Of a stretch of DNA of 32,000 bases, positions 1 to 32,000 are shown one piece after another. The notes below the pieces were generated by a model that saw nothing but the letters and a program-made list of their open reading frames with translations, did not search any database and was not told where the DNA came from. The first letter of the stretch is position 1. Every line of letters starts with the position of its first letter. The position numbers were made by a program, and so were the translations under genes. Origin of the DNA: an uncultured archaeon (GTDB taxonomy: Archaea > Iainarchaeota > Iainarchaeia > Iainarchaeales > Iainarchaeaceae); assembly GCA_964577555.1 (NCBI GenBank), contig CAZNZM010000004.1:87671-119670 (forward strand), given 5' to 3'.

Positions 1-1
1 T

Positions 2-1162: not shown

Positions 1163-1312
1163 CAAAAAAAAACAACAAAAACAAAACTCACAAAAAAAAC
1201 AAGCCACAAAAAAAATCAAAATTTTCATAAAAAAATAAAAGAATTGACACGCAAAAACAAAAAAACAACACAAACAACAACCTAAAAAAAACAAAAATAC
1301 AAAACAAGCTTA
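1163..1312 (+). repeat. A-tract spacer with embedded cores (locus 0), partial copy of the 'ctcacaaaaaaaacaagccac' module
   Basis: 1187-1207 'ctcacaaaaaaaacaagccac' parallels 23146-23167 and 5497-5516. 'aattgacacgc' at 1241-1251. Confidence 0.5.
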
Positions 1313-1321
1313 ACAGAAACG

Positions 1322-1329
1322 TATTTAAA
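1322..1329 (+). promoter_or_regulatory. TATA-like box for the 1352-5179 operon (leaderless or near-leaderless)
   Basis: 'tatttaaa' lies about 25 nt upstream of ATG 1352. No Shine-Dalgarno in between. Confidence 0.4.
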
Positions 1330-1351
1330 GTAAAAAGTTATTCAATTTTTC

Positions 1352-1750
1352 ATGAAAGCTATTTTTGAAGTCAAAACAATGCAAACACAATGGAAACCAC
1401 CATTCAAAAAAACTTCAACAGAAAACCAATTTAAAGTTTCAGAAGGGGAAAGCTTTGACCATATTAATGCAAACGGCAATGACGAAGACATATTCCAACT
1501 CATAAAAATAAAAGGAGACAAAGCACTAATAAAGCACAGCAGAGTATTCACAATAAAAAATCCAGCCACGGCACAAGTAGAAAAAGACAGAGGATTATGG
1601 CTCACAATTGAAAAAAGCGAAGCACTAACATATTTATGGGGAGAGCAAGGAATAACAAAAATAATAACCTACAAAGGAATTTCTGAAGAACTTGACGAAC
1701 AAACAAAACAAGAAATAGCGGAAGATCTAATTATTCAACAGGCGCAATAA
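1352..1750 (+). CDS. hypothetical protein (132 aa)
   Basis: Intact ORF at the head of a tightly packed + strand operon, with normal non-repetitive composition. No motif recognised. Confidence 0.6.
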   Translation: MKAIFEVKTMQTQWKPPFKKTSTENQFKVSEGESFDHINANGNDEDIFQLIKIKGDKALIKHSRVFTIKNPATAQVEKDRGLWLTIEKSEALTYLWGEQGITKIITYKGISEELDEQTKQEIAEDLIIQQAQ

Positions 1751-1751
1751 A

Positions 1752-2015
1752 ATGACACAAAGAATATACCAAATTGACTCATACGCCAAAGAATGCGAAG
1801 CCACTATAACAAAAGCCGAAGAAAAATTTGCATACTTGGACAAAACAATATTCTACCCCCAAAGCGGAGGACAACCAAGCGATACAGGAAAAATAATAGA
1901 CCAAAAAGGCAACGAATACAAAGTAATTTCTGCAAAAAACAACGGAGAAGACATTATTTTAGAATTGGATAAAGAAGGAATATCAGAAGGAAAAGCAAAA
2001 TGCATACTAGACTGA
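1752..2015 (+). CDS. alaX: AlaX-type alanyl-tRNA editing protein, N-terminal fragment (ends at in-frame TGA 2013-2015)
   Basis: 'IYQIDSYAKECEATI...LDKTIFYPQSGGQPSDTGKI' matches the N-domain of AlaX-M / AlaRS-type proteins. Same reading frame as 2034-2456. Confidence 0.8.
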   Translation: MTQRIYQIDSYAKECEATITKAEEKFAYLDKTIFYPQSGGQPSDTGKIIDQKGNEYKVISAKNNGEDIILELDKEGISEGKAKCILD

Positions 2016-2033
2016 GACAGGCGATACAAACTA

Positions 2034-2456
2034 ATGAAAATGCACACATCATCACATATACTTTCAGCAATAATAAACCAAGAAACACAAGCACTAATTA
2101 CAGGAAACCAACTAGAAGAACAAGAATCCAGAATGGATTTCAACGCAAAAAAAATCGACAAAGAAACAATTGAAAAAATAGAAACCAAAGCAAACCAAAT
2201 AATAACAAGCAACATAGAAATCAAAATATCCTTTGAAAGAAAAGAAATAGCAATGCAAAGGCCAGAACTATTCAAACTAAAAGACGTTCTGCCAAAAAAC
2301 ATTCCGATATTTAGAATAGTTTCAATAGGAAACTTTGACATACAAGCAGACGGAGGAACACACGTCAAAAACACAAAAGAAATAGGAAAAATAAAAATAA
2401 CAAACTTCAAAAACAAAGGAGCGGAAAACAAAAGAATATACTGGCAACTAATCTAA
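2034..2456 (+). CDS. alaX: AlaX-type alanyl-tRNA editing protein, C-terminal fragment (editing core)
   Basis: 'MHTSSHIL' is the HxxxH zinc motif. 'ADGGTHVKNTKEIG' corresponds to the CxxxH motif with Asp in place of Cys. In frame with 1752-2015. Confidence 0.8.
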   Translation: MKMHTSSHILSAIINQETQALITGNQLEEQESRMDFNAKKIDKETIEKIETKANQIITSNIEIKISFERKEIAMQRPELFKLKDVLPKNIPIFRIVSIGNFDIQADGGTHVKNTKEIGKIKITNFKNKGAENKRIYWQLI

Positions 2457-2516
2457 AATACACAAACCTAAAAAACAAAAGATTAAAATTAAATTAACCT
2501 ACACGCTAATTCAAAC

Positions 2517-2867
2517 ATGGAATACAAACAAATAATAATAATAAGAAATGACTTAAAAATGGGAAAAGGAAAAATAGCAGCACAAGCCGCACACGCAAGC
2601 TTAGAAGCATACGAAAAAACACTTAAAGAAAAACCGGAATGGGTTTCAACATGGAAAAAAACAGGGCAAGCAAAAATAGTGCTCAAAACACAAACAAAAA
2701 AAGAACTAACAGAACTATTTGAAAATATAAAAAAAGAAGTCCCAGCAACAATGATAAAAGACGCTGGAAAAACACAAATAGAAGCAGGAGAACCAACAGC
2801 AATAGGAATAGGACCATGCCCAGAAACAAAAGTTAATAAATTCACAAAAAACCTAAAACTATTATGA
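2517..2867 (+). CDS. pth2: peptidyl-tRNA hydrolase, archaeal/eukaryotic Pth2 type
   Basis: 'IIIRNDLKMGKGKIAAQAAHASL', 'KIVLK', 'IKDAGKTQIEAGEPTAIGIGP' and a C-terminal 'LKLL' are hallmarks of the Pth2 family. Confidence 0.95.
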   Translation: MEYKQIIIIRNDLKMGKGKIAAQAAHASLEAYEKTLKEKPEWVSTWKKTGQAKIVLKTQTKKELTELFENIKKEVPATMIKDAGKTQIEAGEPTAIGIGPCPETKVNKFTKNLKLL

Positions 2868-3088
2868 AAAAAAATAAAACAACTTACCTAATAATAGGAA
2901 TTCTAACAATAATAATTACAATTACACTAGTCATAACATTAAACGACATGAAAAAAATATTTTTCACAAACAAATTATTTTCAAACCTTAACCCATCCTG
3001 GATTTTCATAATAATAGGAACCATGACAATATGCGGAGCATACTTATTCAGCATAGCCACAAAAATATTAAAAGAAACAACGAGGTAA
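2864..3088 (+). CDS. small membrane protein (74 aa, two predicted TM helices)
   Basis: ATGA start/stop overlap with pth2. Two hydrophobic stretches. No homology recognised. Confidence 0.5.
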   Translation: MKKNKTTYLIIGILTIIITITLVITLNDMKKIFFTNKLFSNLNPSWIFIIIGTMTICGAYLFSIATKILKETTR

Positions 3089-3093
3089 AAAAA

Positions 3094-3852
3094 ATGAAAA
3101 ACTGGGAAACAATAAAAAAAGTAATAAAAGATTCAGACATTGTCATTGAAGTAATAGACGCAAGATTCCCAGAATTAAGCAGAAACACGCAACTTGAAGA
3201 AATAATAAAAAAATCAAAAAAAAAACTTCTCATAGTAATAAACAAATCCGACTTAATATCCAAAAAAAAAGCACAAAAAATAAAAAACAAAATAAAAGAA
3301 AACGCAATATTTATTTCTGCAAAAAAAAGAACAGGAACAATAATTCTAAAAAAAACAATAAAAAAACTTGCTAAAAACGAAAAAACAAAAATAGCAATAA
3401 CAGGATACCCAAACACAGGAAAAAGCAGCATAATAAACATGCTAAAAGGAAAAAAAAGCGCACCAGTATCACCAACAGCAGGATTCACAAAAGGAATGCA
3501 AAACATAAAAATAGACTCAAAAATAATGATGATAGACACTCCAGGAGTAATACCAATAGAAGAATACAATGAAACCAAAATGGCGATAATATCAGCAAAA
3601 AACGTACAATCAATAAAAGACTTAGAATCAACAGGAATAGAAATAGCAGAAACACTGCTAAAAGACAACAAAACAGAAATAGAAAACCACTATGGAATAA
3701 AAGCGGACAACGGCGAAGAACTACTCATAAAAATAGCTGAAAAAAGAAAACTACTCAAAAAAGGAGGAGAATACAACCTTAACGAAGCGGCCAGAATACT
3801 AATAACAGACATGCAAAGAGGCACATTAAAAATAAAAAAAGGAAAAACATGA
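3094..3852 (+). CDS. circularly permuted ribosome-biogenesis GTPase (YlqF/RbgA/MMR1-HSR1 family)
   Basis: Permuted motif order G4 'NKSD', G1 'GYPNTGKSS', G3 'DTPG'. ATG 3094 lies just after the stop of the preceding ORF. The ORF-track start at 3031 overlaps that ORF and is unlikely. Confidence 0.85.
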   Translation: MKNWETIKKVIKDSDIVIEVIDARFPELSRNTQLEEIIKKSKKKLLIVINKSDLISKKKAQKIKNKIKENAIFISAKKRTGTIILKKTIKKLAKNEKTKIAITGYPNTGKSSIINMLKGKKSAPVSPTAGFTKGMQNIKIDSKIMMIDTPGVIPIEEYNETKMAIISAKNVQSIKDLESTGIEIAETLLKDNKTEIENHYGIKADNGEELLIKIAEKRKLLKKGGEYNLNEAARILITDMQRGTLKIKKGKT

Positions 3853-3859
3853 ATAAGTC

Positions 3860-4525
3860 ATGATATCACAGACATACAAAGAACCAATACAAGTATTTAT
3901 TGCAATTTATGCAATATTTGGAATAATAATATTTTACATAATATTTTCAAACCAAGGATTTGAAATACAGGAAAAATTCAATCAAAACACGAAACAAAAA
4001 GAATATTTCCTACAAAACCTCACAAAAAGAAAAATAAACGACATAAACATCACATACTTAGACAACAAAAACCAAAAAATACTCAAAAACGAGACAATAA
4101 AAGAACTTATGCCTGAAGAAAAAAAAACACTTAACATAGAATCAATTTCAGCATCAGAAATAAAAATCATAGCAACAAGTACATTCTACAACCAAGCAGA
4201 AAAAATCATTCTGTTTGAAACACAAAAACCTACAATAAAAACAACATACCCTAGCACAGTAAAATTCGGACAAAGATTCAACTTTATATTAGAATACTGC
4301 AACAACGACAATACAGAAACACAAAAAACAACAATTGAAGAAAACCACGACAAAATATTTTTCTTGGAAAAACCGATAACAAAAACACTCCAAGTAAAAA
4401 CAGGAGAATGTGAAAAAATAACATATAACTTTTTAGCAGCACACAGAGGAGAAACCAAAATATATTTTAATGTAATAACCCCAAATACTAACCAACAAAT
4501 AGAAGAAATAATAAGAGTTGAATAA
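3860..4525 (+). CDS. hypothetical N-terminally membrane-anchored protein (221 aa)
   Basis: N-terminal hydrophobic helix 'VFIAIYAIFGIIIFYIIF' followed by a beta-rich-looking extracytoplasmic region. In an operon. Confidence 0.6.
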   Translation: MISQTYKEPIQVFIAIYAIFGIIIFYIIFSNQGFEIQEKFNQNTKQKEYFLQNLTKRKINDINITYLDNKNQKILKNETIKELMPEEKKTLNIESISASEIKIIATSTFYNQAEKIILFETQKPTIKTTYPSTVKFGQRFNFILEYCNNDNTETQKTTIEENHDKIFFLEKPITKTLQVKTGECEKITYNFLAAHRGETKIYFNVITPNTNQQIEEIIRVE

Positions 4526-4528
4526 ACT

Positions 4529-5179
4529 ATGAAGCAAAACAGCAGCATAATAGAAATAATAGAAAAAATGGTCAGGGACGGCGAACCAGAAGAAAAAATA
4601 TTAAAAACACTCCTCGAGCTCGGCGTGGAACCTGAAAAAGCAAAAAAACTGCTTCTGTTGGGGCAAGCAGATACATTTTCACTACTTAAAAGAGAAATAA
4701 GAAACATAGTACACGATGAATTAGAAAAAGAAAAACCAATGCTCAAAAAATTCATAGAAGAAGAAACAATACAAGCAAACTACGAAGCAAGACAAGAACT
4801 GACAAAAGCAGTAATAAGCGACCTAAAAGAATATGAAAAAGACATTTCAGGATACAACAAAACATTCCAAGAAAAAATTGAAGAAAATGTCAGAAAAATA
4901 ACCGAAATGAACGACAAACTAAAAATAAAACTAAACGAAATGGGAGAAAACCTTAGACAAGTACAAATAGACATGGATGAAATGAGAATAAAAGGAATAG
5001 GGTCAAGAAACAAACTAATAAGCAACGCACTCTGGCTATTAGGACTATTTTTCGGAGTTGGAACATTCTACATTTTCATCACAAGTTTCGGACAAGCACT
5101 AACAATCGACAACATAATAGTAATGATAACAATGGCGCTAATCACAATAACAATGCTTTTTGTGGCAACAATAATATGA
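4529..5179 (+). CDS. hypothetical coiled-coil protein with C-terminal TM helices (216 aa)
   Basis: N-terminal 'LLELGVEPEKAKKLL' UBA-like helix pair (a weak impression), long K/E heptad-like middle, two C-terminal hydrophobic helices. Confidence 0.6.
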   Translation: MKQNSSIIEIIEKMVRDGEPEEKILKTLLELGVEPEKAKKLLLLGQADTFSLLKREIRNIVHDELEKEKPMLKKFIEEETIQANYEARQELTKAVISDLKEYEKDISGYNKTFQEKIEENVRKITEMNDKLKIKLNEMGENLRQVQIDMDEMRIKGIGSRNKLISNALWLLGLFFGVGTFYIFITSFGQALTIDNIIVMITMALITITMLFVATII

Positions 5180-5640
5180 AAAAGCCAAAAACAAGTTCAA
5201 AAAAAACAAACAAAAAAATTAATTGAAAACTAAAAATGAAAACACGCTTCACTAAAAAAAACGGCTCTACAAGAAAAAGACCATAAACGATTGAATTTTA
5301 AAATTAAAAATTGACAAAAAAAACTTGGCTAAAAAAAAACAGACAAACAAAAATTCAAAAAAAACAAAAAAACGGCTCACAAAAACAAACAACAAAAAAA
5401 ACCAACCAAAAAAAAATAAGAAAAAAAATGACTTGCAAAAAAACAAAAAAAAATAACAAAAAAACTTGACAAGCAACATCAAAAAAACAAAATTGGCTTG
5501 CAAAAAAACAAGCCACAACAAAATAATTGACAAAAAAAATCGTCCAACAAAAAAACCAAAAAAACCGCAAAAAAATGGCTCACAAAAAACAAAAAAATAA
5601 TGACAAAAAAAGGCTCGCCAAAACAAATTTAAAAAAAATA
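5180..5640 (+). repeat. A-tract modular repeat locus A
   Basis: Cores at 5311-5316 (ttgaca), 5324-5330 (cttggct), 5373-5380 (cggctcac), 5429-5436 (tgacttgc), 5465-5474 (cttgacaagc), 5493-5501 (ttggcttgc), 5576-5583 (tggctcac) and 5612-5619 (ggctcgcc), each flanked by A6-A9 runs. 5488-5583 is near-identical to 23137-23233. Confidence 0.85.
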
Positions 5641-5646
5641 AAAAAA
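5631..5646 (-). terminator. oligo-T tract terminator candidate for the minus-strand hjc unit
   Basis: Read on the minus strand, T7 and T8 runs follow directly after the stop of the 5770-5648 ORF. Oligo-T is the known archaeal termination signal. Confidence 0.45.
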
Positions 5647-5647
5647 T

Positions 5648-5770
5648 TCAAGCTTTCTCATAATCCTTCAAATTCTTTAAAGCGTTCTCAAGCAAAATTT
5701 TTTTCCTCAAACTTTTTTCCTTAGAAATCAACCGGTCGATTTCACTTATAATCATTTCAATTTCCAACAT
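5648..5770 (-). CDS. candidate small protein (40 aa, amphipathic helix), below the ORF-track size cutoff
   Basis: My translation is MLEIEMIISEIDRLISKEKSLRKKILLENALKNLKDYEKA. The ORF limits coincide with the only non-A-tract island in the 640-bp spacer. It lies 50 nt downstream of hjc on the same strand and is followed by T-runs. Confidence 0.35.
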   Translation of the reverse strand: MLEIEMIISEIDRLISKEKSLRKKILLENALKNLKDYEKA

Positions 5771-5820
5771 ATTACTAATAAATCATTCGAGCAATTTAAA
5801 AATAAAAGCAAAAAAAATAA

Positions 5821-6222
5821 TCAACGCAAAGTGCTTTGCAAACCACAAAGAACATCAATAGAAACACCAAACTTTCTCGCCTTTTCAAACGAAATAGTAT
5901 AATACTTTCCCTTGGCAAAATCAGAAGCCTTAAGAAAAAACCAGCCTTTATTAGGATACTTCCAAGCAATATAAGTTTCACTGCCAGCAATCCTCTCCCA
6001 CTTTATGAGGTCATTCATTTGAATGGAACTAATAGCTAAATAAGGAGCTCTCCAAGCCTTACATTCTATTGAAATATTCCTGCCATTACCAAGCACAATA
6101 AGGTCAGGGCTAGGCAAATGATTCTTGCCAGAACCAGCACTGCGAACAACAGCAAAACCGCGTTCAGCAAAAAGCTCCATAAGTTCACGCTCAGCACTTG
6201 CCCCTTTATTATAACGAGCCAT
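5821..6222 (-). CDS. hjc: Holliday junction resolvase Hjc
   Basis: 'GASAERELMELFAERGFAVVRSAGSG', 'PDLIV' and 'IECK' match the archaeal Hjc nuclease motifs (E...D...E-x-K). Confidence 0.9.
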   Translation of the reverse strand: MARYNKGASAERELMELFAERGFAVVRSAGSGKNHLPSPDLIVLGNGRNISIECKAWRAPYLAISSIQMNDLIKWERIAGSETYIAWKYPNKGWFFLKASDFAKGKYYTISFEKARKFGVSIDVLCGLQSTLR

Positions 6223-6243
6223 AAAAAAACTAACAACACTTTC

Positions 6244-6253
6244 ATTTAAAATT
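6244..6253 (-). promoter_or_regulatory. TATA-like box for hjc (leaderless)
   Basis: Minus strand reads 'attttaaatg', centred about 27 nt upstream of the hjc ATG (6222). Confidence 0.45.
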
Positions 6254-6446
6254 TGAAGCCCGACAAAAAAACCAAAACAAAAACAAAAAAACAGAGCCTA
6301 CAAGGTTTGACGAAAAATTAAACAGAAAAAGGCACAACGTCACATTAATATACTTTTTCCAAGCAAAAATAAATACAAGCCCAAAAGGGCATTATGCTTA
6401 GAGAATCAGGATTTAAGCTTTTGAAACAAAAAAAATTGGTTATTGC

Positions 6447-6728
6447 GTGACACAAAAAATCGCAAAAATAGAATTGGAAACAATCCCTAATTCAGACAAA
6501 TTCAGAATTATGGGTTTCAATCCATGGACAGGAAGACTAAGAGTCAAAATAAAATCAAAAGCTCAAAAAGGAGAAGCTAATAAAGAACTTTTATTAGAAT
6601 TTCAAAAAATATTCAAAAACGAAGCACAAATCCTTTCAGGAGAAAAAAGCAGAAAAAAAACAATACTGCTAAAAAACATCTCGGAAAAGGAAGCAAAAGA
6701 AACACTTACAAAAAAAAGCAAATCCTGA
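6447..6728 (+). CDS. DUF167 / YggU-family (UPF0235) protein
   Basis: 'RLRVKIKSKAQKGEANKELLLEFQKIF...ILSGEKSRKKTILL' matches the DUF167 signature (GKAN...SG..SR.K). GTG start at 6447. Confidence 0.75.
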   Translation: MTQKIAKIELETIPNSDKFRIMGFNPWTGRLRVKIKSKAQKGEANKELLLEFQKIFKNEAQILSGEKSRKKTILLKNISEKEAKETLTKKSKS

Positions 6729-6752
6729 TTCTAAAAACCAAAAAAAAAGGAG

Positions 6753-8171
6753 ATGGAAAAAATGGCAAAAACATACATAAATGCTGTAAAATACGCAATC
6801 AAAATGAGTTTTGAAGTCGACGGAATAGTTGATAAACCAGACATAATAGGCGCAATATTCGGACAAAGCGAAGGACTGCTTGGAGACGAAATGGACCTCA
6901 AAGAACTGCAAAAAAACGGAAAACTTGGAAGAATAGAAATCAATCACACAACATCAATGGGAAAAACAAAAGGCGAAGTCCTAATACCTTCCTCGCTTGA
7001 CATGGCCGAAACAAGCCTTTTAGCAGCAGGAATAGAAACAGTAGACAAAGTAGGCCCATGCGAAGCAAAATTCAAATTAATCGACATAGAAGACACAAGA
7101 ACAGAAAAAAGACAAGAAATAAAAGACAGGGCAAAAGAAATACTAAAAATGCTAATGGAAAAATCATCACCAGAAACACAAACACTTTCAGACGAAATAA
7201 GAGAAAACGCAAGAGCGGCTGACATAATAGAATACGGCCCCGACAAACTACCAGCAGGTCCAGATGTTGAAACAAGCGAAGAAATAATAATAGTTGAAGG
7301 AAGAGCAGACGTACTCAACATGCTCAAAAACCAAATAAAAAATGTAATAGGAATGAATGGCTCAAACATATCTCCAAGCCTTGCACAACTAACCAAAACA
7401 AAAACAGTAACAGCATTCGTTGACGGCGACAGAGGAGGAATACTCAACGCAAGAAAACTTATGCAAATAGCAAAAGTGGATTTTATAGCACAAGCACCAA
7501 CCGGAAAAGAAGTAGAAGAACTCACAAGAAAAGAAATACTGCTTTCACTAAAAAAGAAAAAACCAGCAACAGAAATAGAAGACACAAACACCCAACAAAA
7601 AGAATATCAAGGACACATATTCAAAGAAAGAATAACAGAAAACCAATATAACAGAAGACACCCAAGAAAAAATATGTACAGAGAAACAGAAAGTTACTAC
7701 AAAAAAAACCAAGAATACAACCTAAATATAAGAAATAAAAGAGGAAGACGCATAAACACAAGAAGCACGACAAGATATGCACCATCAATAAGCAGAAACC
7801 AAAAACCACAAACAAATTGGGTGCAAAAAATAGAAAGAGTACCATTCAACATTGACAACACGGAACCAAAAACAACACCACAAAAACTGTCACAAGACGA
7901 AGAAGCAATATTCAAACCGTTTTTTGAACAACTTAAAGGAACAATGACTGCAAAAATACTCGGCAAAAAAAACGAAATAATCAAAGAAGCAAAAGTAAAA
8001 GACTTAATAAAAGAGCTACCAGAAATCAAAGAAGCCAACGCAATAATATTCGACGGAGTAATAACAAAAAGACTAATAGAAGCCGCAGAAAAATCCGGAA
8101 TAAAATACATAATCGGAGCCAAAAAAGGAAAAATAGAAAATAACAACAATGTAAAAACAATAACACTATAA
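6753..8171 (+). CDS. dnaG: archaeal DnaG (TOPRIM primase-like, exosome-associated)
   Basis: 'KYAIKMSFEVDGIVDKPDIIGAIFGQSEGLLGDEMDLKELQKNGKLGRIEI' and TOPRIM 'IIIVEGRADVLN...VDGDRGG'. The alternative start ATG 6762 has better spacing from GGAG at 6749-6752. Confidence 0.95.
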   Translation: MEKMAKTYINAVKYAIKMSFEVDGIVDKPDIIGAIFGQSEGLLGDEMDLKELQKNGKLGRIEINHTTSMGKTKGEVLIPSSLDMAETSLLAAGIETVDKVGPCEAKFKLIDIEDTRTEKRQEIKDRAKEILKMLMEKSSPETQTLSDEIRENARAADIIEYGPDKLPAGPDVETSEEIIIVEGRADVLNMLKNQIKNVIGMNGSNISPSLAQLTKTKTVTAFVDGDRGGILNARKLMQIAKVDFIAQAPTGKEVEELTRKEILLSLKKKKPATEIEDTNTQQKEYQGHIFKERITENQYNRRHPRKNMYRETESYYKKNQEYNLNIRNKRGRRINTRSTTRYAPSISRNQKPQTNWVQKIERVPFNIDNTEPKTTPQKLSQDEEAIFKPFFEQLKGTMTAKILGKKNEIIKEAKVKDLIKELPEIKEANAIIFDGVITKRLIEAAEKSGIKYIIGAKKGKIENNNNVKTITL

Positions 8172-8250
8172 AACAAAAACCTAAATACAAACAACCTCCA
8201 ATTTCAAAATAAAAAAAAGCAACAACAATAAAATTCCAAAAAAATAAATT

Positions 8251-8712: not shown

Positions 8713-8874
8713 CTAAACCTATTTTAATACATTAATTTAATATATAAATCTTGCCAAAGACCCCAAAATTATCAAAAAAACCTTTGCTAAAAAAAAACAC
8801 AAATAAAACACGCAATATAAAGTTTTTGCTGGAATAAGTCACATAACTTTATAAAAAACAACAAAAAAAATAAA

Positions 8875-24368: not shown

Positions 24369-24402
24369 GGAACAACTATGTCCAAAAGCCTATATAAATT
24401 TT

Positions 24403-25062
24403 TCAGATGCCACTATTTTCCAATTCAACAAGACAATACTTTATGTTTTCCGCCTGCTTTTTCTCCAAAACAGACCCATGCCCAGGATAAAGATATTTAA
24501 AATCCAAACAAGACAACTTACGAATACTTGCAATCAAATCACTCCTATTTCCGCTTGGCAAATCAAACCTGCCAAAAGCACCATTAAACAAAGTATCACC
24601 AGAAAACAAAACCCCGCTTTCTTCATCATAAAAACAAACACTGCCCTTAGTATGCCCCGGAGTATCAATAACCTTGAAAACAAAATCAACTATTTCAAAA
24701 ACCTGCCCAGGCTTATAAAAAAAATCTATTTCAGGATAAAAATCCTGCATAAAACTCGAAGACACAGTAAAATAATCGGATTTGGCATTAACAAGCAACC
24801 CATCATGCAAACTCATCCACTTTTCAGCACGAGGAAACAAAACCGCACCACCAATATGATCGGCATGCCCATGAGTAAAAAGAATCTTATGAATATCAAT
24901 AGGCTTCAAACCCAATTCAGCCAAAGCCTTTTGAATATTAAAAGAATCAGACACAAGACCTGAATCAATAAGCACATTCTCAGAACCCCGCACAAGATAA
25001 ATATTAGAGCCTGAAGAACCAAAAGACAACAAATAAATAGAACCAAACAAACTCCTCAACAT
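24403..25062 (-). CDS. MBL-fold metallo-hydrolase
   Basis: 'FTHGHADHIGG' (the HxHxDH motif), 'DTPGHTKGS' and 'PGHG'. Confidence 0.88.
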   Translation of the reverse strand: MLRSLFGSIYLLSFGSSGSNIYLVRGSENVLIDSGLVSDSFNIQKALAELGLKPIDIHKILFTHGHADHIGGAVLFPRAEKWMSLHDGLLVNAKSDYFTVSSSFMQDFYPEIDFFYKPGQVFEIVDFVFKVIDTPGHTKGSVCFYDEESGVLFSGDTLFNGAFGRFDLPSGNRSDLIASIRKLSCLDFKYLYPGHGSVLEKKQAENIKYCLVELENSGI

Positions 25063-25078
25063 AATACAAATACTAAAC

Positions 25079-25093
25079 GCAATATTTAATTGC
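25079..25093. promoter_or_regulatory. symmetric AT-core element in a 53-bp divergent spacer, a candidate shared/bidirectional TATA region
   Basis: 'gcaat-attta-attgc' is centred 24 nt from the minus-strand ATG (25062) and 30 nt from the plus-strand ATG (25116). Neither gene has an SD. Confidence 0.4.
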
Positions 25094-25115
25094 TGAACGT
25101 ATTTTCTTAAAGTAC

Positions 25116-25940
25116 ATGACTCAAGAAAACCTAAAAAAAATAATTACAAAAATATCAGAAAAAACAGGAAAAACAACAGAAGAAATAAACGAACTAATAA
25201 GAGCAAAAAAAAACAAATTTTCAGGACTATTGACAGAATTTGGCGCAGCATTCCTCATAGCCAAAGAACACGGAATAGAACTTGAAAACGAACCAAAAAA
25301 AAGCACAAAAATAACAGAATTGAAACCAGGAATGAACAACATAGACATAATATGCAAAATAAAAATAATATTTCCTGTTAAAGAATTTGAAAAAAACGGA
25401 AAAAAAAGAAAATTACAAAACATGATAATAGAAGACGATACAGGAGAAACAATAGCCACACTATGGAACGGAGACATAGAAAAACTAAAAAATATAAATG
25501 CAACAAAAGGAGAAAAAATAAAAATTACAAACTGCTACGTCTCAGAATACAACAACAAAACACAAATAAGCCTCAATTACAACAGCACAATTAATAGAGA
25601 AGAAAACACAAACACAGAAAAACAATTCAAAAAACTCAAAGAACTTGAACCAGGCCTGCAAAACATAGACATCAAAGCAGAAATTAGAAAAATATTCGGA
25701 ATGAGAAACTTTGACACTCCAAAAGCAAAAGGAAAACTAATAACATTTATACTAGGCGACGAAGAAACCGAAATAAAGGCGACAGCATGGAACGAAAAAG
25801 CAGATGAAATAGCAAAAATACTTGAAGACGAAACAATCATAATTGAAAACGCATACACAAAACAAGGAATCAACGACAACACAGAAATAAACCTTGGAAA
25901 AAACGCCAGAATAATAAGGCTGAAAAAAAACCAAAACTAA
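25116..25940 (+). CDS. replication protein A-like ssDNA-binding protein (two OB folds)
   Basis: N-terminal 'FSGLLTEFGAAFLIAKEHGIEL' helix typical of euryarchaeal-type RPA. Two repeats of the form 'I..K...IFP.K.F......K.....I.DDTGE..ATLWN...'. Confidence 0.8.
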   Translation: MTQENLKKIITKISEKTGKTTEEINELIRAKKNKFSGLLTEFGAAFLIAKEHGIELENEPKKSTKITELKPGMNNIDIICKIKIIFPVKEFEKNGKKRKLQNMIIEDDTGETIATLWNGDIEKLKNINATKGEKIKITNCYVSEYNNKTQISLNYNSTINREENTNTEKQFKKLKELEPGLQNIDIKAEIRKIFGMRNFDTPKAKGKLITFILGDEETEIKATAWNEKADEIAKILEDETIIIENAYTKQGINDNTEINLGKNARIIRLKKNQN

Positions 25941-26074
25941 AAAAAACACACCGGCAAAGAACTACAAATTAATTTATAAATACATAAAAAAAACAATCAA
26001 TTAAAGCATAGGGAAAAGGCAAGCTAAAGCCAAAAAGCGAAGCCAAAAAAAACCTGATGCAGGAGGAATCAAAA

Positions 26075-27028
26075 ATGGCGAAACAAATTAAAGAAATACA
26101 AGATCTGCCAGGAATAGGACAACAAGCGGCAGAAAAACTAATTAATGCAGGATACAAAACACTTGAATCAATTGCAGTAGCATCACCAGCCGAACTAATA
26201 GAAATAGCAGGACTAGGTGAAGGAACCGCAACAAAAGCAATCAACGCGGCAAGAGACGCACTAGAAATGGGATACGAATCAGCTGCAGAAATAGCAGAAA
26301 AAAGAAAACATGTTGGAAGACTTACAACAGGAAGCAAAGAAGTAGACAACCTTTTAGGCGGAGGAATTGAAACACAAAGCATAACAGAAATATACGGAAA
26401 ATACGCAAGCGGAAAAACACAATGGTGCTTCCAAACAGCAGTAACAGTACAACTCCCAAAAGAAAAAGGAGGATTAGAAGGAGCATGCCTTTACATTGAT
26501 TCAGAAAACAGTTTCAGACCAGAAAGAATCCAAGCAATTGCAGAAGCACAAGGACTTGACCCAGAAAAAGTACTAAAAAACATTTACGTAGCACGCGCAT
26601 ACAACTCGGACCACCAAATACTATTAGCAGAAAAAGCTGGAGAAATCATAAAAGAAAAAAACATAAAACTAGTAATAGTTGACTCCTTAACATCCCAATT
26701 CAGAGCAGAATTCGTAGGCAGAGGAACACTCGCGGAAAGACAACAAAAACTCAACAAACACATGAGAACACTACAAAAACTCGCAGAAATGAACAATATA
26801 GTAGTACTAGTAACAAATCAAGTAATGGAAAGACCAGACATACTGTTTGGGGACCCAACAGCACCAATAGGAGGCAACATAGTAGGACATGCAAGCAAAA
26901 CAAGATTATATCTAAGAAAAAGCAAAGAAGACAAAAGAGTAGCAAAACTAGTAGACAGCCCACACCTCCCAGACGGAGAAGCAATCTACAAAGTAACGGA
27001 AAAAGGAATAGAAGACGTAGAAGACTAA
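26075..27028 (+). CDS. radA: DNA repair and recombination protein RadA
   Basis: HhH 'LPGIGQQAAEKLINAGYKTLESIAVASPAEL', Walker A 'GKYASGKTQ', 'LVIVDSLTSQFRAEF'. ATG 26075 preceded by 'aggagg'. Confidence 0.96.
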   Translation: MAKQIKEIQDLPGIGQQAAEKLINAGYKTLESIAVASPAELIEIAGLGEGTATKAINAARDALEMGYESAAEIAEKRKHVGRLTTGSKEVDNLLGGGIETQSITEIYGKYASGKTQWCFQTAVTVQLPKEKGGLEGACLYIDSENSFRPERIQAIAEAQGLDPEKVLKNIYVARAYNSDHQILLAEKAGEIIKEKNIKLVIVDSLTSQFRAEFVGRGTLAERQQKLNKHMRTLQKLAEMNNIVVLVTNQVMERPDILFGDPTAPIGGNIVGHASKTRLYLRKSKEDKRVAKLVDSPHLPDGEAIYKVTEKGIEDVED

Positions 27029-27178
27029 AAAAAACAATAAAAACTCTCCAACAAAAAAAACAAGAACGATTTAATAAAAAAAATAAAAACAGGTTTCTAT
27101 AGAGTAAAAATACAAAAAAAGAAAAAAACAAACCAGATTATTTTTTATTAATGACTCGCCCAATACTTTTTGAACAAC

Positions 27179-27427
27179 ATGAAAAACAATAAAAACACAA
27201 AAATAACGATTTATACAACCCCCACATGCATATATTGCAAACTTACAAAAGAATTTTTTAAACAAAATGACATAAAATTCAAAGAATACAACGTAGCAAA
27301 AGACCTAAAAAAAGCCAAAGAAATGATTGAAAAATCGGGACAACAAGGAGTTCCGGTAATTGACATAAACGGCAAAATCATCATAGGATTCAACAAAAAC
27401 GAATTAAAAGAAGCCTTGAATTTATAA
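27179..27427 (+). CDS. glutaredoxin-like protein (NrdH/YruB-type, CxxC = CIYC)
   Basis: 'ITIYTTPTCIYCKLTKEFF', 'GVPVIDINGKIIIGFN'. Confidence 0.85.
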   Translation: MKNNKNTKITIYTTPTCIYCKLTKEFFKQNDIKFKEYNVAKDLKKAKEMIEKSGQQGVPVIDINGKIIIGFNKNELKEALNL

Positions 27428-27437
27428 AGTGATTTTT

Positions 27438-28355
27438 ATGGAAAAATACGATCTTTTAATAATAGGCTCAGGAATAACAGGGTACTCCGCAGCAATATAC
27501 GCGGCACGCTTCAAAATGAACACAATAGTAATAGGAGAACTACCTGGCGGCCTCATAACAACAACCCACCTAGTTGAAAACTGGCCAGGAATAATTTCAA
27601 TCAGCGGCTTAGAACTAGCAGAAAACCTCAAAAAACACGCAGAAGCAAACGGAGTGCCTATTATAAACGACAAAGTCATAGACATAAAACAAAAAACAGA
27701 CTCAACTTTTCAAGTAAAAACTTCAAATGGACAAGAATTTTCCACAAAAACAATATTATTCGCTACAGGAACTACAAGAAGAAAACTAGGAATCAAAGGC
27801 GAAAAAGAATTTGAAAACAAAGGAGTAAGCTATTGCGCAGTTTGCGACGGAGCACTATTCAAAAACAAAACAGTCGCAGTAATAGGAGGATCTGACAGCG
27901 CTGCAAAAGAATCACTTTACCTAGCAGAACACGCTTCAAAAGTATATATTATATACAGAGGAGAAAAAATAAGAGCAGAACCAATAAACTACGAAAGAGT
28001 AACTCAAAACAAAAAAATTGAAATAATCACCAAAAAAAACGTCATTGAAATTTATGGAGACCGAATAGTCCAAGGAGTAAAATTCAAAGAAGGCGGAGAA
28101 CTAAAACTTGACGGAGTCTTCATAGAAATAGGAGCAGACCCAAACAGCGAACTAGCTGCCAAACTCGGAGTCTCACTAAACGAAAAAAAAGAAATCATAA
28201 TAGACATTGACAGCAAAACAAACATACCTGGAATTTATGCGGCGGGGGACGTTGCCAACAGACATTTTAAACAAGCAATAACAGGATCTGCTGAAGGAGT
28301 AATAGCGGCTTTTTCAGCATACGAATACATAAACACGCCAAAAAACAAAAATTAA
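27438..28355 (+). CDS. trxB: thioredoxin-disulfide reductase
   Basis: 'DLLIIGSGITGYSAAIYAAR', redox-active 'CAVCDG', 'VAVIGGSDSAAKE', 'GIYAAGDV'. Confidence 0.93.
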   Translation: MEKYDLLIIGSGITGYSAAIYAARFKMNTIVIGELPGGLITTTHLVENWPGIISISGLELAENLKKHAEANGVPIINDKVIDIKQKTDSTFQVKTSNGQEFSTKTILFATGTTRRKLGIKGEKEFENKGVSYCAVCDGALFKNKTVAVIGGSDSAAKESLYLAEHASKVYIIYRGEKIRAEPINYERVTQNKKIEIITKKNVIEIYGDRIVQGVKFKEGGELKLDGVFIEIGADPNSELAAKLGVSLNEKKEIIIDIDSKTNIPGIYAAGDVANRHFKQAITGSAEGVIAAFSAYEYINTPKNKN

Positions 28356-28363
28356 GTGATATT

Positions 28364-28735
28364 GTGCCATCAATTGCAATAATCGGAGCTTCAAACAACA
28401 AAGACAAATTCGGAAACAAATGCGTGAGAGCATACCTAAGCATTGGCTGGAAAGTCTTCCCAATAAACCCAAAAGAAAAAAACATAGAAGGATTAAAAAG
28501 CTATTCATCGATAACCGAATTACCAACAAAACCAGACAGAGTCTCAATATATCTTCCGCCAAACACAACAATCTCTTTAATACCTGAATTGCTCAAAGCC
28601 AAAATAAAAAACATTATACTTAACCCCGGCGCAGAATCAGAAGAACTCATAAAAGCACTTAACAAAAACGGAATAAAAACAACACTTGCGTGCAGTATAA
28701 GACTTGAAGGACTAAACCCAAACGACTTTCCATAA
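28364..28735 (+). CDS. CoA-binding domain protein (YccU/YneT-like)
   Basis: 'IAIIGASNNKDKFGNKCVRAYLSIGWKVFPINPK...IEGLKSYSSITELP' is the typical CoA_binding_2 signature. GTG start. Confidence 0.8.
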   Translation: MPSIAIIGASNNKDKFGNKCVRAYLSIGWKVFPINPKEKNIEGLKSYSSITELPTKPDRVSIYLPPNTTISLIPELLKAKIKNIILNPGAESEELIKALNKNGIKTTLACSIRLEGLNPNDFP

Positions 28736-28790
28736 ACCAAAAACCACATTTAATAAAAATATTTAGACTTAACCCAACCAAAATCATAAC

Positions 28791-29792
28791 ATGCAAAGAT
28801 TTTCACTAAATGAAATAACAGAACAGGAAATATTCAAAACAATCTCAAAAGCAATAACAGAAACAGAATTTTCAACTTTTACAATAGGAATAACCTCAAA
28901 AAACCCTGAATTAAAAAACAGCTTCAGCCAAAAAATCAAAGAATACATGACAACAACACTTTCTAAAAAATTCACAAACAAAAATTTCGAACTGTACATC
29001 CTAATCAACATTGACAAAGGAATTTTAGAAATAAAAACAACACCAATTTTCATATATGGACACTACAACAAATTCTCCAGAAACATTGCACAAACATTCC
29101 ACTATTGCTTCAAATGCAAAGGAAAAGGATGCAAATACTGTAAAGGCACAGGCAAACTCTCAGAACATTCAGTTCAAGAAATTTTAGAAAAGTATTTTAT
29201 TCCGGCATTTAAAGCCACAAAATCAAAATTTCACGGATGCGGCAGAGAAGACGTGGACGTCAGAATGCTTGGTTCAGGCAGACCATTCATAATAGAACTA
29301 ATCAACCCAATAAAAAGAAATTTTGACTTGGCTTTGCTTGAAAAAAAAATAAATTCAAAACACAAAAAAATAATTTCCATATCAAATTTAAGATTTTCCG
29401 AGAAAAAAGAAGTTGAGCGCATCAAAAACTCAGAATTTGAAAAAATATACTCGGCATTGTGTCATTATGAAGGTAATTTAAAAGAAACAACACTTCATGG
29501 GTTAATAGGCAAAGAATACCTAATTTTTCAAAGAACACCTCAAAGAGTGGAAAAGCGCAGAACTGACAAAGAAAGAATAAAAAAGGCAAAATTACTATCA
29601 GCAAAAATAATAGGAAAAAACCTTTTTTCAATTGAAATAAAATCCTCACATGGACTTTATATAAAAGAATTCATTTCAGGCGACAACGGAAGAACAAAAC
29701 CAAGCATTTCAGAACTTCTAGGAGTAAAATGTGTTTGCAAAGAACTGGATGTTTTAGAAATACTCATCGAACAAAACACAAATAAAAAATAA
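28791..29792 (+). CDS. pus10: tRNA pseudouridine synthase Pus10
   Basis: 'CFKCKGKGCKYCKGTGK' followed by 'FHGCGREDVDVRMLGSGRPFIIEL' (the catalytic Asp motif of Pus10). Short N-terminal region. Confidence 0.88.
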   Translation: MQRFSLNEITEQEIFKTISKAITETEFSTFTIGITSKNPELKNSFSQKIKEYMTTTLSKKFTNKNFELYILINIDKGILEIKTTPIFIYGHYNKFSRNIAQTFHYCFKCKGKGCKYCKGTGKLSEHSVQEILEKYFIPAFKATKSKFHGCGREDVDVRMLGSGRPFIIELINPIKRNFDLALLEKKINSKHKKIISISNLRFSEKKEVERIKNSEFEKIYSALCHYEGNLKETTLHGLIGKEYLIFQRTPQRVEKRRTDKERIKKAKLLSAKIIGKNLFSIEIKSSHGLYIKEFISGDNGRTKPSISELLGVKCVCKELDVLEILIEQNTNKK

Positions 29793-29995
29793 AAATTGAC
29801 AAAAAAACAACAAAAAAATTGTCTCGCAAAAAAATAAACAAATCAAAAAAACAAAAAAAACAATAAAAAATTAAGAAAAAAATGACTTACAAAAAAAAAC
29901 AAAATTCAATTAAAAAAAATAATTGACAAAAAAAAAGAAAAACGACAAAAAAACAAAAACTAATTATAAAATTAAAAAAAAATGGCTCAAAAAGG
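29793..29995 (+). repeat. A-tract modular repeat locus F
   Basis: 'aaaaattgacaaaaaaac', 'ttgtctcgc' 29819-29827, and 29883-29937 'tgacttacaaaaaaaaacaaaattcaattaaaaaaaataattgacaaaaaaaaag', a partial copy of the locus D/E module. Confidence 0.7.
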
Positions 29996-30035
29996 CTTTT
30001 ATAAAAAATTAAAAGCAAAAGAAAAAACTTCAAAA

Positions 30036-30902
30036 TCAAACCTTTTTAAGCTCCGATTCCAACAATTTTTTCACATCGGTAAAAGAATATGCTCCTACCA
30101 AAGTGCTTCCATTAATAAAAAATGTAGGAGTTCCTGAAACACCTAAAGATCTTCCAGCAGCAGTATCAGATTCCAGCCTAGAATCATATTTTCTTGAAGA
30201 AAGACAAGAATCCAATTTGGCCGGATCAGCACCAGCCTTTTTAGCAAGCTCCTTCATCTTCTCAAGATTATTTGTCTCATCTTGAACCTCAAAAGCAAGA
30301 TCATGATACTTCCAGAATATGTCGGAGCTCTGCTCATTAGCACACAAACCAACTTTCATTGCTTCTTGACCAGTACCATGCCCGGGGAAATACTTAAATG
30401 CAAACCTTGCCTTTCCGGTTTTTACATACTCGTTTATTATTCCTTGCACAGGAGGAGTCCAATTAGGATCTCTTTGCTTCATAAAATCAACATATTTTTT
30501 AGAAGCACCAGAAGCAGCACCACAATAAGGACAAGAAAAATCAGAAAACTCTACTATAGTAAGAGGAGCGTCAGGATTACCAATTACAGGGCCTTCATCA
30601 GCAAGTTGTTTCAAAGTGGCTTTTAAATTCTCAGGATTCTGGGAACCATTATCTCCATTATAATTATCATTAACCACGTCTCCGCCATCAGAACCGGAAT
30701 TCTGAACATTAATCTGCAACTTGCTTATACTATTTGAAATGTTATTCAATTTATTGCTCAAATCAAATCCGACAAAAATCAAAGATACTGAAAGTATAAG
30801 AGCTGAAACAACCAAAGCAATAGGAATATAAAGAGAATCCATGCCGGAACTAGATTCAACCGATGACCCTTCTCTCTCGTGACGCAAAAATAACCCCTCC
30901 AA
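30036..30902 (-). CDS. membrane-anchored DsbA-family thiol:disulfide oxidoreductase
   Basis: TM helix 'IALVVSALILSVSLIFVGF', N/G/D/S-rich linker, thioredoxin fold with 'FSDFSCPYCG' and 'GVSGTPTFFING'. Start is TTG 30902 or ATG 30842. Confidence 0.85.
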   Translation of the reverse strand: MEGLFLRHEREGSSVESSSGMDSLYIPIALVVSALILSVSLIFVGFDLSNKLNNISNSISKLQINVQNSGSDGGDVVNDNYNGDNGSQNPENLKATLKQLADEGPVIGNPDAPLTIVEFSDFSCPYCGAASGASKKYVDFMKQRDPNWTPPVQGIINEYVKTGKARFAFKYFPGHGTGQEAMKVGLCANEQSSDIFWKYHDLAFEVQDETNNLEKMKELAKKAGADPAKLDSCLSSRKYDSRLESDTAAGRSLGVSGTPTFFINGSTLVGAYSFTDVKKLLESELKKV

Positions 30903-30991
30903 TAAAAAATGCCTTTAGAAAATAACCTCCAGAAACTTATTTAAACAAAACTATTTAATTAGCCAACAACAAAAAAACAGAAAAAAAATAT

Positions 30992-31648
30992 TCAATTAAT
31001 TTTTGAGACAATCAATTGAGAAAGCTCCTCAAAACTGTTAAAAGAAGCCTTGACACCATTAATATAAATAGTCGGAGTAGAATTGAGACCCAAAGAAGAA
31101 CGAGCATAATAATTATCAGCATCTACCTTTCCAGACGTTTCGCCCGAAACAATACAAGAGGAAAACTTTTTCTCATCAACACCAATGTCCCTTGCAAAAG
31201 AAACAAGATTTTCAAGCCCTAACTTGTCCTGATTCATAAACATAACATCATGCATTTCCCAAAACTTTCCCTGCAAACCAGCACACTCAGCAGCCATGGC
31301 AGCAGTCTTAGCATTTCCATGAATTTCTGAAAGAGGCAAATGCCTAAAAGTAAGCTTTATTTTATCAGGATATTTCTCAACCAAATCATTCAAGATCGGA
31401 GCAACCTTGCCACAAAAAGGACATTGAAAATCGGAAAAAACAACTACGCGAACCTTTGCACTACTTGAGCCTTTCGAATGCCCGCCATTTTCAAGAGCAT
31501 CAAGATCCAAAACAGGACGTGGCTGGGAAAAAACAAAATAAACCAAGCCAAAAAAAATTAAGATAAGAACAAAAGAAAGAACCGTATAAATATTGCTTCC
31601 ACTTTCAACAACCCTTGACCTTCTAACCTTGTCTTTCAACTTTGACAT
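30992..31648 (-). CDS. membrane-anchored DsbA-family thiol:disulfide oxidoreductase (paralog)
   Basis: TM helix 'VLSFVLILIFFGLVYFVF', 'FSDFQCPFCG', 'GLNSTPTIYING'. ATG 31648 with 'ggttataaaaaatatt' about 30 nt upstream on the minus strand. Confidence 0.85.
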   Translation of the reverse strand: MSKLKDKVRRSRVVESGSNIYTVLSFVLILIFFGLVYFVFSQPRPVLDLDALENGGHSKGSSSAKVRVVVFSDFQCPFCGKVAPILNDLVEKYPDKIKLTFRHLPLSEIHGNAKTAAMAAECAGLQGKFWEMHDVMFMNQDKLGLENLVSFARDIGVDEKKFSSCIVSGETSGKVDADNYYARSSLGLNSTPTIYINGVKASFNSFEELSQLIVSKIN

Positions 31649-31680
31649 GAAAATATAAAACACCCCGAATATTTTTTATA

Positions 31681-32000
31681 ACCACCACCAAAAAAAACAA
31701 AAAAGAAAAAAAAATAAAAAAACACAAACAAAAAACGAATTATAAAAAAAACGGCTAGCTAAAAAAAAATTATGACACAACAAAAATAAGCATACTAAAA
31801 AACAAGTTTACAAAAAAAATTTTAATGACAAAACAAAAGACAAAAAAAAACAAAAATCGCCAAAAAAATCAGCTCACAAAAAAAAACAACTTTGACAAAA
31901 AAAATGCCAAAAAAAACAAAAATAACAAAAAAAATCACCCCACAAAAAAAAACGGCTCGCCAAAAAAAAACAAACAAAAAAAACGACTTGCAAAAAAATG
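31681..32000 (+). repeat. A-tract modular repeat locus G (runs off the window edge)
   Basis: Cores 'cggctagc' 31752-31759, 'tcagctcac' 31869-31877, 'ctttgacaaaaaaaatgcc', 'cggctcgcc' 31953-31961 and 'cgacttgc' 31984-31991, all between A7-A9 runs. Confidence 0.75.

Follow-up and report, generated by a model that had tools for sequence, protein, structure and literature searches.

Strand-level compositional asymmetry and A-tract arrays in the intergenic spacers of an uncultured Iainarchaeales archaeon

The 32,000-nucleotide (nt) stretch analyzed here (termed the window; contig CAZNZM010000004.1, positions 87,671 to 119,670, assembly GCA_964577555.1) stems from an uncultured archaeon of the Iainarchaeales. 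It harbours nine large intergenic spacers filled with A-tract arrays, i.e., runs of A alternating with short cores such as GGCTCAC or TTGAC. The strand lock of these cores, which a preliminary description had highlighted as the hallmark of an unrecognized motif family, derives from the DNA strand and is not peculiar to the motif: whatever the gene direction, synonymous sites of the + strand are rich in A, and therefore unconstrained DNA shows A-tracts on the + strand only. As to the arrays themselves, we lean towards viewing them as lineage-specific, near-neutral intergenic repeat DNA that is shaped by three combined forces, namely strand-asymmetric mutation, a ceiling on homopolymer length and the copying of segments between spacers.

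Strand compositional asymmetry

The + strand of the window (1..32000) consists of 49.3 % A, 18.5 % T, 18.1 % C and 14.1 % G, and every 1-kb bin has a positive AT skew, those with minus-strand genes included. The same polarity prevails throughout the 40.7 kb of DNA examined, which comprise the window, 8.6 kb upstream of it (L003:1-8649) and 51 bases past its end, and correspond to positions 23533-64232 of the 64,232-bp JGI metagenome contig Ga0484859_0000471, on which the window takes up 32182-64181. Third codon positions carry A at.51-.76 in + strand genes and T (coding strand) at.47-.59 in minus-strand genes of at least 133 amino acids (aa); a block of five minus-strand genes in the upstream DNA is biased alike at these positions. 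At four-fold degenerate sites, read on the + strand, composition is A.658, C.135, G.077 and T.130 for + strand genes (n=2802) and A.647, C.118, G.107 and T.128 for minus-strand genes (n=1040), which gives an AT skew of +0.67 for genes of either direction. The bias therefore acts at the level of the strand rather than that of transcription or codons. It is also apparent in protein make-up, with K/N/I/E/T representing 49 % and F/L/V/G/S 24 % of residues in the products of + strand genes (K.14, I.12, E.10) vs 28 % and 40 % in those of minus-strand genes. The A-rich strand carries 30 of the 37 scored protein genes.

Non-coding spacers match four-fold sites in composition as well as in dinucleotide and neighbour biases. 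In the arrays, dinucleotide odds are 2.4 for GC, GG and TT, 2.6 for TG and.57 for GA. At four-fold sites of both gene orientations, the probability of G is.16-.25 if the next base is C vs.04-.05 if it is A; extended to two following bases, it is.14-.27 before CC, CA, GC or CT vs.02-.04 before AA, AT or AG. T clusters next to T in the arrays and at four-fold sites. The recurrent array core TTGGCT is itself a chain of favoured dinucleotides (TT, TG, GG and GC, array odds 2.4-2.6 each). Strand bias and neighbour dependence together therefore render unconstrained DNA rich in A-tracts on the + strand only, with G/T/C islands of about this kind.

Mutation pressure of this type is an observed property of the DNA. 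Its cause is probably linked to replication or repair, i.e., an unusual, perhaps unidirectional mode of replication or a lost repair function. Pure cytosine deamination was considered and not adopted, since the A/T asymmetry at four-fold sites (0.67) far exceeds that of G/C (-0.05 to -0.27), and also because A/C differences between array paralogues are as common as A/G differences.

Two inversions touch on this asymmetry. The Grx-TrxR-CoA-binding-Pus10 block (27170-29792), which has arrays on both flanks, is inverted relative to the DsbA genes when compared with the related loci L087, L088 and L211; its third positions carry A at.51-.57, slightly less than the.63-.69 typical of the window, which might mean that the inversion is young and the composition has yet to settle. 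In the related contig JBBISX010000044.1 (L006), radA (1559-2518) is inverted relative to the RibD-epimerase block (2774-6187) and is A-rich on its own coding strand (third-position A.44, T.18), in contrast to its neighbours, which render the opposite strand A-rich. The pattern resembles that of another recent inversion whose composition has still to adjust.

Architecture of the A-tract arrays

The nine spacers sum to 2885 nt (9.0 % of the window) and consist individually of 63-70 % A, 10-19 % C, 9-20 % T and 3-8 % G (pooled: A.65, C.16, T.12, G.06). They hold 141 A-runs of at least 6 nt, distributed as 20 of length 6, 44 of length 7, 59 of length 8, 15 of length 9 and 3 of length 10, with none of 11 or more. 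For all intergenic DNA the respective counts are 31, 57, 77, 18 and 3, again with none longer; the 134 runs of 7-8 nt compare with about 25 under a geometric distribution (16 at length 7, 9 at length 8). A-runs in coding DNA are likewise capped in length. The unusual length of the spacers and their grammar of A-run, core and A-run, both pointed out previously, are borne out. Parsing at A-runs of at least 5 nt yields, for example, A8 ttggctcac A8 caaaaccaaatt A8 c A7 taac A7 cttgacaagcaacatc A8. The core length of 6-10 nt given in the preliminary description applies to 35 % of the 186 inter-run cores and fails for the rest, including 15 % that are a single base, usually C.

Arrays carry 11-25 tracts and are found between convergent genes (5180, 23091, 29793), in tandem spacers (1163, 12086, 18391) and in a divergent one (31681, judged from the sister species introduced below). 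The operon ends named earlier are thus not their sole location. All arrays have their A-rich strand on +. The array at 1163..1312 (69 % A) lies in a tandem spacer between two + strand genes and contains a decayed copy of a ...CTCAC-A8-CAAGCCAC pair. The one at 5180..5640 separates convergent genes and is composed of modules x (5357-5443), B (5438-5487) and A (5484-5623); the spacer 5180-5650 holds 23 A-runs of at least 7 nt and displays a local 37-nt tandem periodicity. Between tRNA-Val and the next + strand gene, an array of 66 % A extends over 8950..9120. The tandem spacer array at 12086..12530 (22 A-runs of at least 7 nt, 37-nt periodicity) stops just before the S19e promoter, which has a T-rich box at 12539-12555 and promoter-like T runs at 12539 and 12549. 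A weaker array is present at 17306..17520 (64 % A, 20 % T), the whole spacer 17306-17755 containing 6 A-runs of at least 7 nt. Further arrays are located in a tandem spacer upstream of the SRP54 promoter at about 18925-18940 (18391..18870), between the convergent genes for an epimerase and GGGP synthase (23091..23530; 22 A-runs of at least 7 nt, module order A, x, B, partial A'), between the convergent Pus10 and DsbA genes (29793..29995) and upstream of the minus-strand DsbA gene (31681..32000), where the spacer of the sister species is divergent. The array grammar continues beyond these nine spacers, namely at 8172-8250, in DNA upstream of the window and in a small array absent from the earlier list (27029..27169; 4 A-runs of at least 7 nt in 141 nt).

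The array sequence is 100 % identical, where covered, in independent assemblies from JGI (two samples) and Logan (one SRA run). Since these agree base for base through the arrays, an assembly or sequencing artefact is ruled out, and the arrays are therefore not assembly noise. Short-read assemblies stop inside arrays (L004 at window position 5476, L216 at window position 18735, L210 at the orthologue of 29793-29995), as would be expected if the arrays were dispersed repeats at which assembly graphs break. The source is represented in JGI 3300043177 and 3300043267 and in SRR12686701, the sister species in JGI 3300035183 and 3300036768 and in SRR11727984.

That arrays might be coding was rejected, as the called open reading frames (ORFs) are unconserved and 1-nt A-run indels separate paralogues as well as strains. 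Public gene calls of 40-77 aa in or largely over arrays (L003:3031-3264 upstream of the window; 23260-23382, 5139-5297 and 5355-5552 in the window) are almost certainly spurious and find no conservation in the sister species; the longest of them, a called 77-aa 'gene' (L003:3031-3264), is itself an array. Long ORFs open on the minus strand of arrays (e.g., 5267-5626, 119 aa), because stop codons are rare on the A-poor strand. Curved DNA due to phased A-tracts was likewise rejected: the spacing of successive tracts is broad (mode 14-18 nt) and helical phasing, i.e., a periodicity of 10-11 nt, was not found. Structured RNA was also considered and rejected. Rfam at gathering threshold recognizes only tRNAs in the window, the region 17200-19000 has no match at E<=1, and single-sequence folding of three paralogous modules yields nothing convincing on either strand (z-scores of -0.8 to -1.2 on the + strand; -2.6, -2.1 and +0.6 on the minus strand).

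Cores, strand lock and paralogous modules

All core coordinates previously listed (26/26) are correct to within 1-2 nt, and the claimed enrichment of cores in the spacers is confirmed, since none of 1000 dinucleotide-preserving shuffles reaches the observed count. GGCT occurs 19 times vs a shuffle expectation of 1.6, GGCT[CTA][GA]C 14 times vs 0.15, TTGAC 10 times vs 0.86 and TGAC followed by A5 9 times vs 0.6. The strand lock is equally strict as described, with GAGCC, GTGAG, GTCAA and GTCA each absent (0) from the arrays; in the 40.7 kb, the A-flanked motif is found 7-9 times in forward and 0 times in reverse orientation. This polarity of the cores is fully accounted for by base composition. 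Many of the listed cores, while correctly located, are not independent occurrences, as they sit inside longer paralogous modules.

The suggestion of a polar motif resembling KOPS or Chi is unsupported. In coding DNA, GCTCAC occurs 4 times vs 2.6 expected in + strand genes and 0 times vs 1.6 expected in minus-strand genes, and GGCT has a ratio of observed to expected counts (O/E) of 1.27-1.29. TGGCT and TTGGC on the + strand reach O/E values of 2.0-2.5 in coding DNA of both orientations, their reverse complements 0.7-1.0. The 7-8-mers are thus not over-represented in coding DNA, which argues against a genome-wide signal of the KOPS/Chi type.

Similar modules are shared by spacers that are 5-18 kb apart. 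Module A (5484-5623) recurs at 23133-23273 with 91 % identity over 142 nt, module B (5438-5487) at 23403-23452 with 96 % identity over 50 nt, and 18661-18738 matches 23381-23455 with 88 % identity over 78 nt. A local duplication (31893-31953 vs 31826-31887) is 85 % identical. All matches of at least 50 nt are direct; the sole minus-strand match is a 34-nt low-complexity one. Module order is permuted, being x-B-A at 5180 and A-x-B-A' at 23091. A-tracts delimit the indels of the modules, and in three arrays local periods of 35-37 nt were detected by Tandem Repeats Finder. Among the arrays no significant inverted repeats were found, and the units have no defined ends, hairpin or terminal inverted repeat structure.

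Differences between paralogues comprise 15 A/C, 14 A/G, 7 C/T and 4 A/T exchanges as well as nine one-base A-run indels. The cores themselves vary between copies (TGGCTTGC vs TGGCTCAC, GGCTCGCC vs GGCTCACA, CTTGGCTAGCAATATC vs CTTGACAAGCAACATC); in case of the latter pair, the copy at 18661-18738 has the less decayed core CTTGGCTAGCAATATC, the other two copies have CTTGACAAGCAACATC. Spacing from core to core is irregular (35-129 nt).

Comparison with relatives

Housekeeping genes in the window include those for RadA, SRP54, FtsY, DnaG, S19e, eIF6, GGGP synthase and Pus10. RadA is 94-77 % identical to that of metagenome-assembled genomes labelled Candidatus Iainarchaeum / Diapherotrites (DPANN). 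Exact matches to RadA, a 132-aa protein and TRAM led to 100 % identical contigs of the same strain, which carry no variation information, whereas RibD homologues (nearest 69 % identical) served as outgroups only. The DsbA paralogues bore nothing that would mark further contigs of the same genome. The sister species, of which about 9 kb were examined, was reached through homologue searches with DsbA and Rad50.

Among 89 related loci, arrays of the present kind are confined to the source, and the sister species also has them. Two loci (L087, L088) with a RibD 59-60 % identical to that of the window have kept the order SRP54, A24 peptidase, RibD and epimerase followed by convergent GGGP synthase. 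The latter two genes are 477 bp apart in the source, as opposed to 13 bp (L087) and 32 bp (L088). Skew is weak or absent in these two loci (four-fold AT skew.26 and.11 in L087). L006 (RadA 94 % identical) combines a strong strand-level bias with a 203-bp epimerase/GGGP synthase spacer that is free of an array. Absence from relatives of the same gene order, set beforehand as speaking against the significance of the elements, is hence found at the epimerase/GGGP synthase junction but not in the sister species, in which arrays are present.

The sister species shares 81 % DNA identity with the source (DsbA 85 %, Rad50 93 % at the aa level). Its loci L210 and L212 share the strand-level bias, with four-fold AT skews of.71, and of -.54 and -.60 at a reversed locus. 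A-runs in its arrays have the same mode of 8 and the same stop (15 of length 6, 16 of length 7, 22 of length 8, 2 of length 9, 0 of length 10), and both species draw on the same vocabulary (cttggctc, ctggctcgc, cggcttgc, cttgac). The dominant module differs, being GAC-A7-TTTAATTTTTAAAAY-A8-TAAATTGCCC-A6-CTTGAC-A7-CTTGGCTC in the sister species, where it is present in at least 4 copies. Such species-specific dominant modules point to concerted evolution within each species.

Of the non-A bases in the arrays of the window, G is kept in the sister arrays at.24, C at.41 and T at.39, values understated by the low-complexity alignments, vs.43,.54 and.59, respectively, at four-fold sites of the flanking DsbA genes. 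The orthologue of 29793-29995 in L210 is alignable mainly via A runs, the only conserved block being TGGCTCAAAAAGGCTTTT beside the DsbA stop codon. In the L210 orthologue of 31681-32000, three cores are in place, with G/A differences. In the spacer between the M48, tRNA and aS21 genes, conservation is about 100 % for the tRNA and for the aS21 promoter (ACCTTTTTAAAACTTGCC...GGTG), and the adjacent array aligns through its A's only. Two strains of the sister species display 5 differences in this spacer of 473 nt (two substitutions, three A-run indels), as compared with 3 differences in genes totalling about 3.7 kb. Of the five substitutions, four are G/A on the + strand, and polymorphism in the spacers is about 13 times that of coding DNA.

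Proposed origin of the arrays

The near-neutral origin favoured here would involve the following three forces. Firstly, extreme strand-asymmetric and neighbour-dependent mutation pushes unconstrained + strand positions to A, leaving G almost only before C or GC and T mainly beside T. Secondly, a homopolymer-length ceiling would pile up A-runs at 7-8 nt, with almost none longer than 9-10 nt. The distribution as such is observed, and the ceiling is probably due to slippage that favours contraction once runs exceed about 8 nt. Thirdly, segments may be duplicated, deleted and copied between spacers with A-tracts serving as short homologies, which would spread and homogenise modules of 35-320 nt within the genome. 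Paralogy, A-tract-bounded indels and species-specific modules are evident from the above comparisons, and from these we infer the mechanism of copying. GGCTCRC, TTGGCT and TTGAC cores would then represent G/T/C islands surviving between A-tracts. Their recurrence is attributed to copying within modules together with chains of favoured dinucleotides (TT, TG, GG, GC), and their strand lock to the mutational force, the lock being no evidence for a polar signal.

Several observations weigh against a near-neutral origin. About 9 % of a streamlined genome is much DNA for functionless filler. Moreover, sister arrays occur at four comparable junctions (Pus10/DsbA, upstream of DsbA, M48/tRNA, downstream of Rad50), and such persistence since the split of the two species at 81 % identity suggests either selection for a spacer at these sites or a very active generating process. 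The two species also have in common, at positions that are not orthologous, a composite of the form YGGCTYRC(C)-A4-5-CAAACAAC. In arrays, GGCT, GGCTC and GCTCAC are enriched 12- to 40-fold vs a roughly 2-fold context effect in genes. To this are added the understated conservation in low-complexity alignments, the unpolarised direction of mutation in all differences counted and the single skew polarity of all DNA examined in the source, among which no region of opposite skew occurs.

Alternative explanations

An adaptive role of the arrays is considered unlikely. It would apply to an Iainarchaeia clade with an orientation-independent neutral AT skew of about 0.67, to which belong the source, the sister species (JGI 3300035183/3300036768) and, with a weaker bias, JBBISX01. 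A genome of one polarity could not keep oligo-T terminators on its gene-rich strand, and the arrays would act as replacement terminators and insulators or as protected methylation sites.

In a first rival reading, which we regard as distinctly unlikely, the arrays would be transcription insulators. Each A7-9 run corresponds to a T7-9 tract on the minus strand, i.e., an archaeal intrinsic terminator that would stop minus-strand or antisense transcription; with + strand operons unable to keep T-tracts, a long untranslated and unstructured A/C-rich RNA might give room for termination by FttA/aCPSF1. The RNA-DNA hybrid has a length of 8, which equals the mode of the A-runs. U-tracts set the efficacy of archaeal termination (PMC8716108). 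Intergenic T-runs of at least 5 nt on the + strand are mostly TATA-like and located 3-93 nt upstream of gene starts (e.g., at 1346, 2960, 12539, 12549, 27141 and 31672). A T-tract of this length is trivially present downstream of every minus-strand gene; few + strand gene stops are followed by one, leaving + strand genes largely devoid of canonical oligo-T terminators. Also in agreement with an insulator role, the largest arrays follow the ends of + strand operons, four lie between convergent genes, the + strand RNA of the three modules folded is predicted to be unstructured, and arrays are kept at the same junctions in the sister species. However, one to three tracts would suffice where arrays carry 11-25, and in relatives this convergent junction spans 13-32 bp only. 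The occurrence of such arrays in tandem and divergent spacers renders a dedicated terminator array unlikely, so that the oligo-U terminator/insulator arrays proposed previously gain no support; inside blocks of minus-strand genes, where arrays are also found, T8 tracts would cut operons. Finally, the known action of FttA is aided by U-tracts, not by A-tracts (PMC8716108).

In a second rival reading, to be viewed with no less doubt, the arrays would be homotypic sites for a nucleoid protein, a transcription factor or a DNA methyltransferase, with a core GGC-YN-GCC (GGCTAGCC, GGCTCGCC, GGCTTGCC) held between stiff A-tracts. Selection, or the protection of modified cytosines from deamination (putative methylation at GGCNNGCC), would maintain the number of sites while individual sites turn over. 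The strong core enrichment fits this proposal, as does the vocabulary that both species have in common at non-orthologous positions, since site turnover would look alike. There is a perfect palindrome (TGGCTAGCCA) at 23505, and several cores have GGC..GCC outer symmetry. The retention of arrays at the same junctions in both species agrees as well, and site-specific protection could likewise keep G before C or GC even at four-fold sites. On the other hand, most copies are the non-palindromic GGCTCAC, a palindromic site would need no strand lock, the core spacing is irregular, the 7-8-mers are not enriched in coding DNA, and no candidate binding protein is singled out among the genes of the window. 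Cores change freely among paralogues, and orthologous non-A bases are kept less than four-fold sites; the binding-site arrays envisaged in the preliminary description therefore remain without support.

Very improbable are non-autonomous mobile or promoter-carrying modules inserted in one orientation with A-tracts as part of the element. Spacers 5-18 kb apart do share 88-96 % identical segments, the dominant sister module has a T-rich box resembling the SRP54 promoter ATTTAATTTTAAAAG, and arrays interrupt short-read assemblies. However, the modules lack terminal inverted repeats, target-site duplications and defined ends, their order varies with A-tracts as boundaries, no transposase or integrase is encoded in the 40.7 kb, and uniform orientation is not expected from transposition.

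Further features of the region

A G+C-rich hairpin (ctcggcac-taaaa-gtgccggg, then cttt) is located at 18360-18392, just 3' of a 78-aa gene ending at 18335. It is unlike all else in the spacers, has no Rfam match within 17200-19000 and could be a candidate terminator-like or protein-binding stem. The gene for tRNA-Gly(GCC) (10837-10910, + strand) and the thymidylate kinase ORF on the minus strand (10890-11534) have about 21 nt in common at the 3' end of the latter; the public call for thymidylate kinase (212 aa) is N-terminally shorter than the 214-aa ORF. In a distant relative, a gene for an OrfB_IS605/Cas12f-like TnpB adjoins the SRP54 operon (L088:1279-2670, L089:7-1353); it is absent from the window.

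A metagenome-wide scan for AAAAAANGGCTCRCMAAAA returned at least 120 stretches, with one match per listed locus and the source lineage absent among the matches listed. The contigs L151, L191, L202 and L193, matched by chance, are unrelated, have a G+C content of 48-52 % and are extremely purine-rich on one strand with many A- and G-runs. In three of them, A is.35-.37, G.31-.34 and T.14-.15; L193 is milder.

Implications and relation to known systems

If most of the chromosome were to share the polarity seen here, the asymmetry would imply unusual replication or repair, e.g., a unidirectional or strand-displacement-like mode of replication or a lost repair pathway. If genome-wide, it would represent a natural experiment in the limit of one-sided mutation pressure on a cellular genome, and the cause of archaeal strand bias (replication mode, deamination or lost repair) would become directly testable in this lineage. 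In practical terms, the arrays break short-read assemblies and yield spurious calls of 40-77 aa, and the composition misleads binning and codon-based tools.

To our knowledge, the skew of the source exceeds those of bacteria, and we know from a limited literature search of no cellular genome reported with an asymmetry this strong. Within the same limited search, no report of a comparable A/T asymmetry in archaea was found. As in bacterial GC/AT skew, vertebrate mitochondrial DNA and the candidate phyla radiation (CPR) bacterium Ch65 (PMC7143001), composition follows the DNA strand and not gene direction, one strand being A+C-rich and the other T+G-rich, and protein composition is reshaped too. 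In case of Ch65, C amounts to 29.8 % vs 15 % G along the whole chromosome without an A/T disparity, which was attributed to possibly unidirectional replication (PMC7143001). From this disparity, which is confined to G/C, the source differs by its four-fold AT skew of +0.67, a far larger magnitude, and by being an archaeon.

REP/BIME, BOX and MIRU-type minisatellites, as generally known, resemble the arrays in consisting of short modular intergenic units which are shared among loci, vary in order and copy number and evolve in concert. Unlike these, the arrays have neither a palindromic or hairpin unit nor a relation to reading frames, are 65 % A, occur in one orientation and have homopolymers as boundaries. 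KOPS and Chi, again as commonly described, are like the cores short G-containing oligomers on one strand only, but spread through coding DNA and skewed beyond composition, whereas the array 7-8-mers keep to the spacers. Mononucleotide microsatellites and poly(A) of AT-rich reduced genomes are familiar for a similar AT-biased build-up of tracts, with length changes as the commonest polymorphism; in contrast, the array tracts are found on one strand only, and their lengths fall in a narrow range, peaking at 8 and ending abruptly at 9-10 in both species. With archaeal oligo-T terminators (PMC8716108) the arrays share minus-strand T7-9 tracts of like length downstream of minus-strand genes, but they have tens of tracts per spacer and are also positioned upstream of genes and between + strand genes. 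It is the strand asymmetry, and not the motif family, that is the remarkable part.

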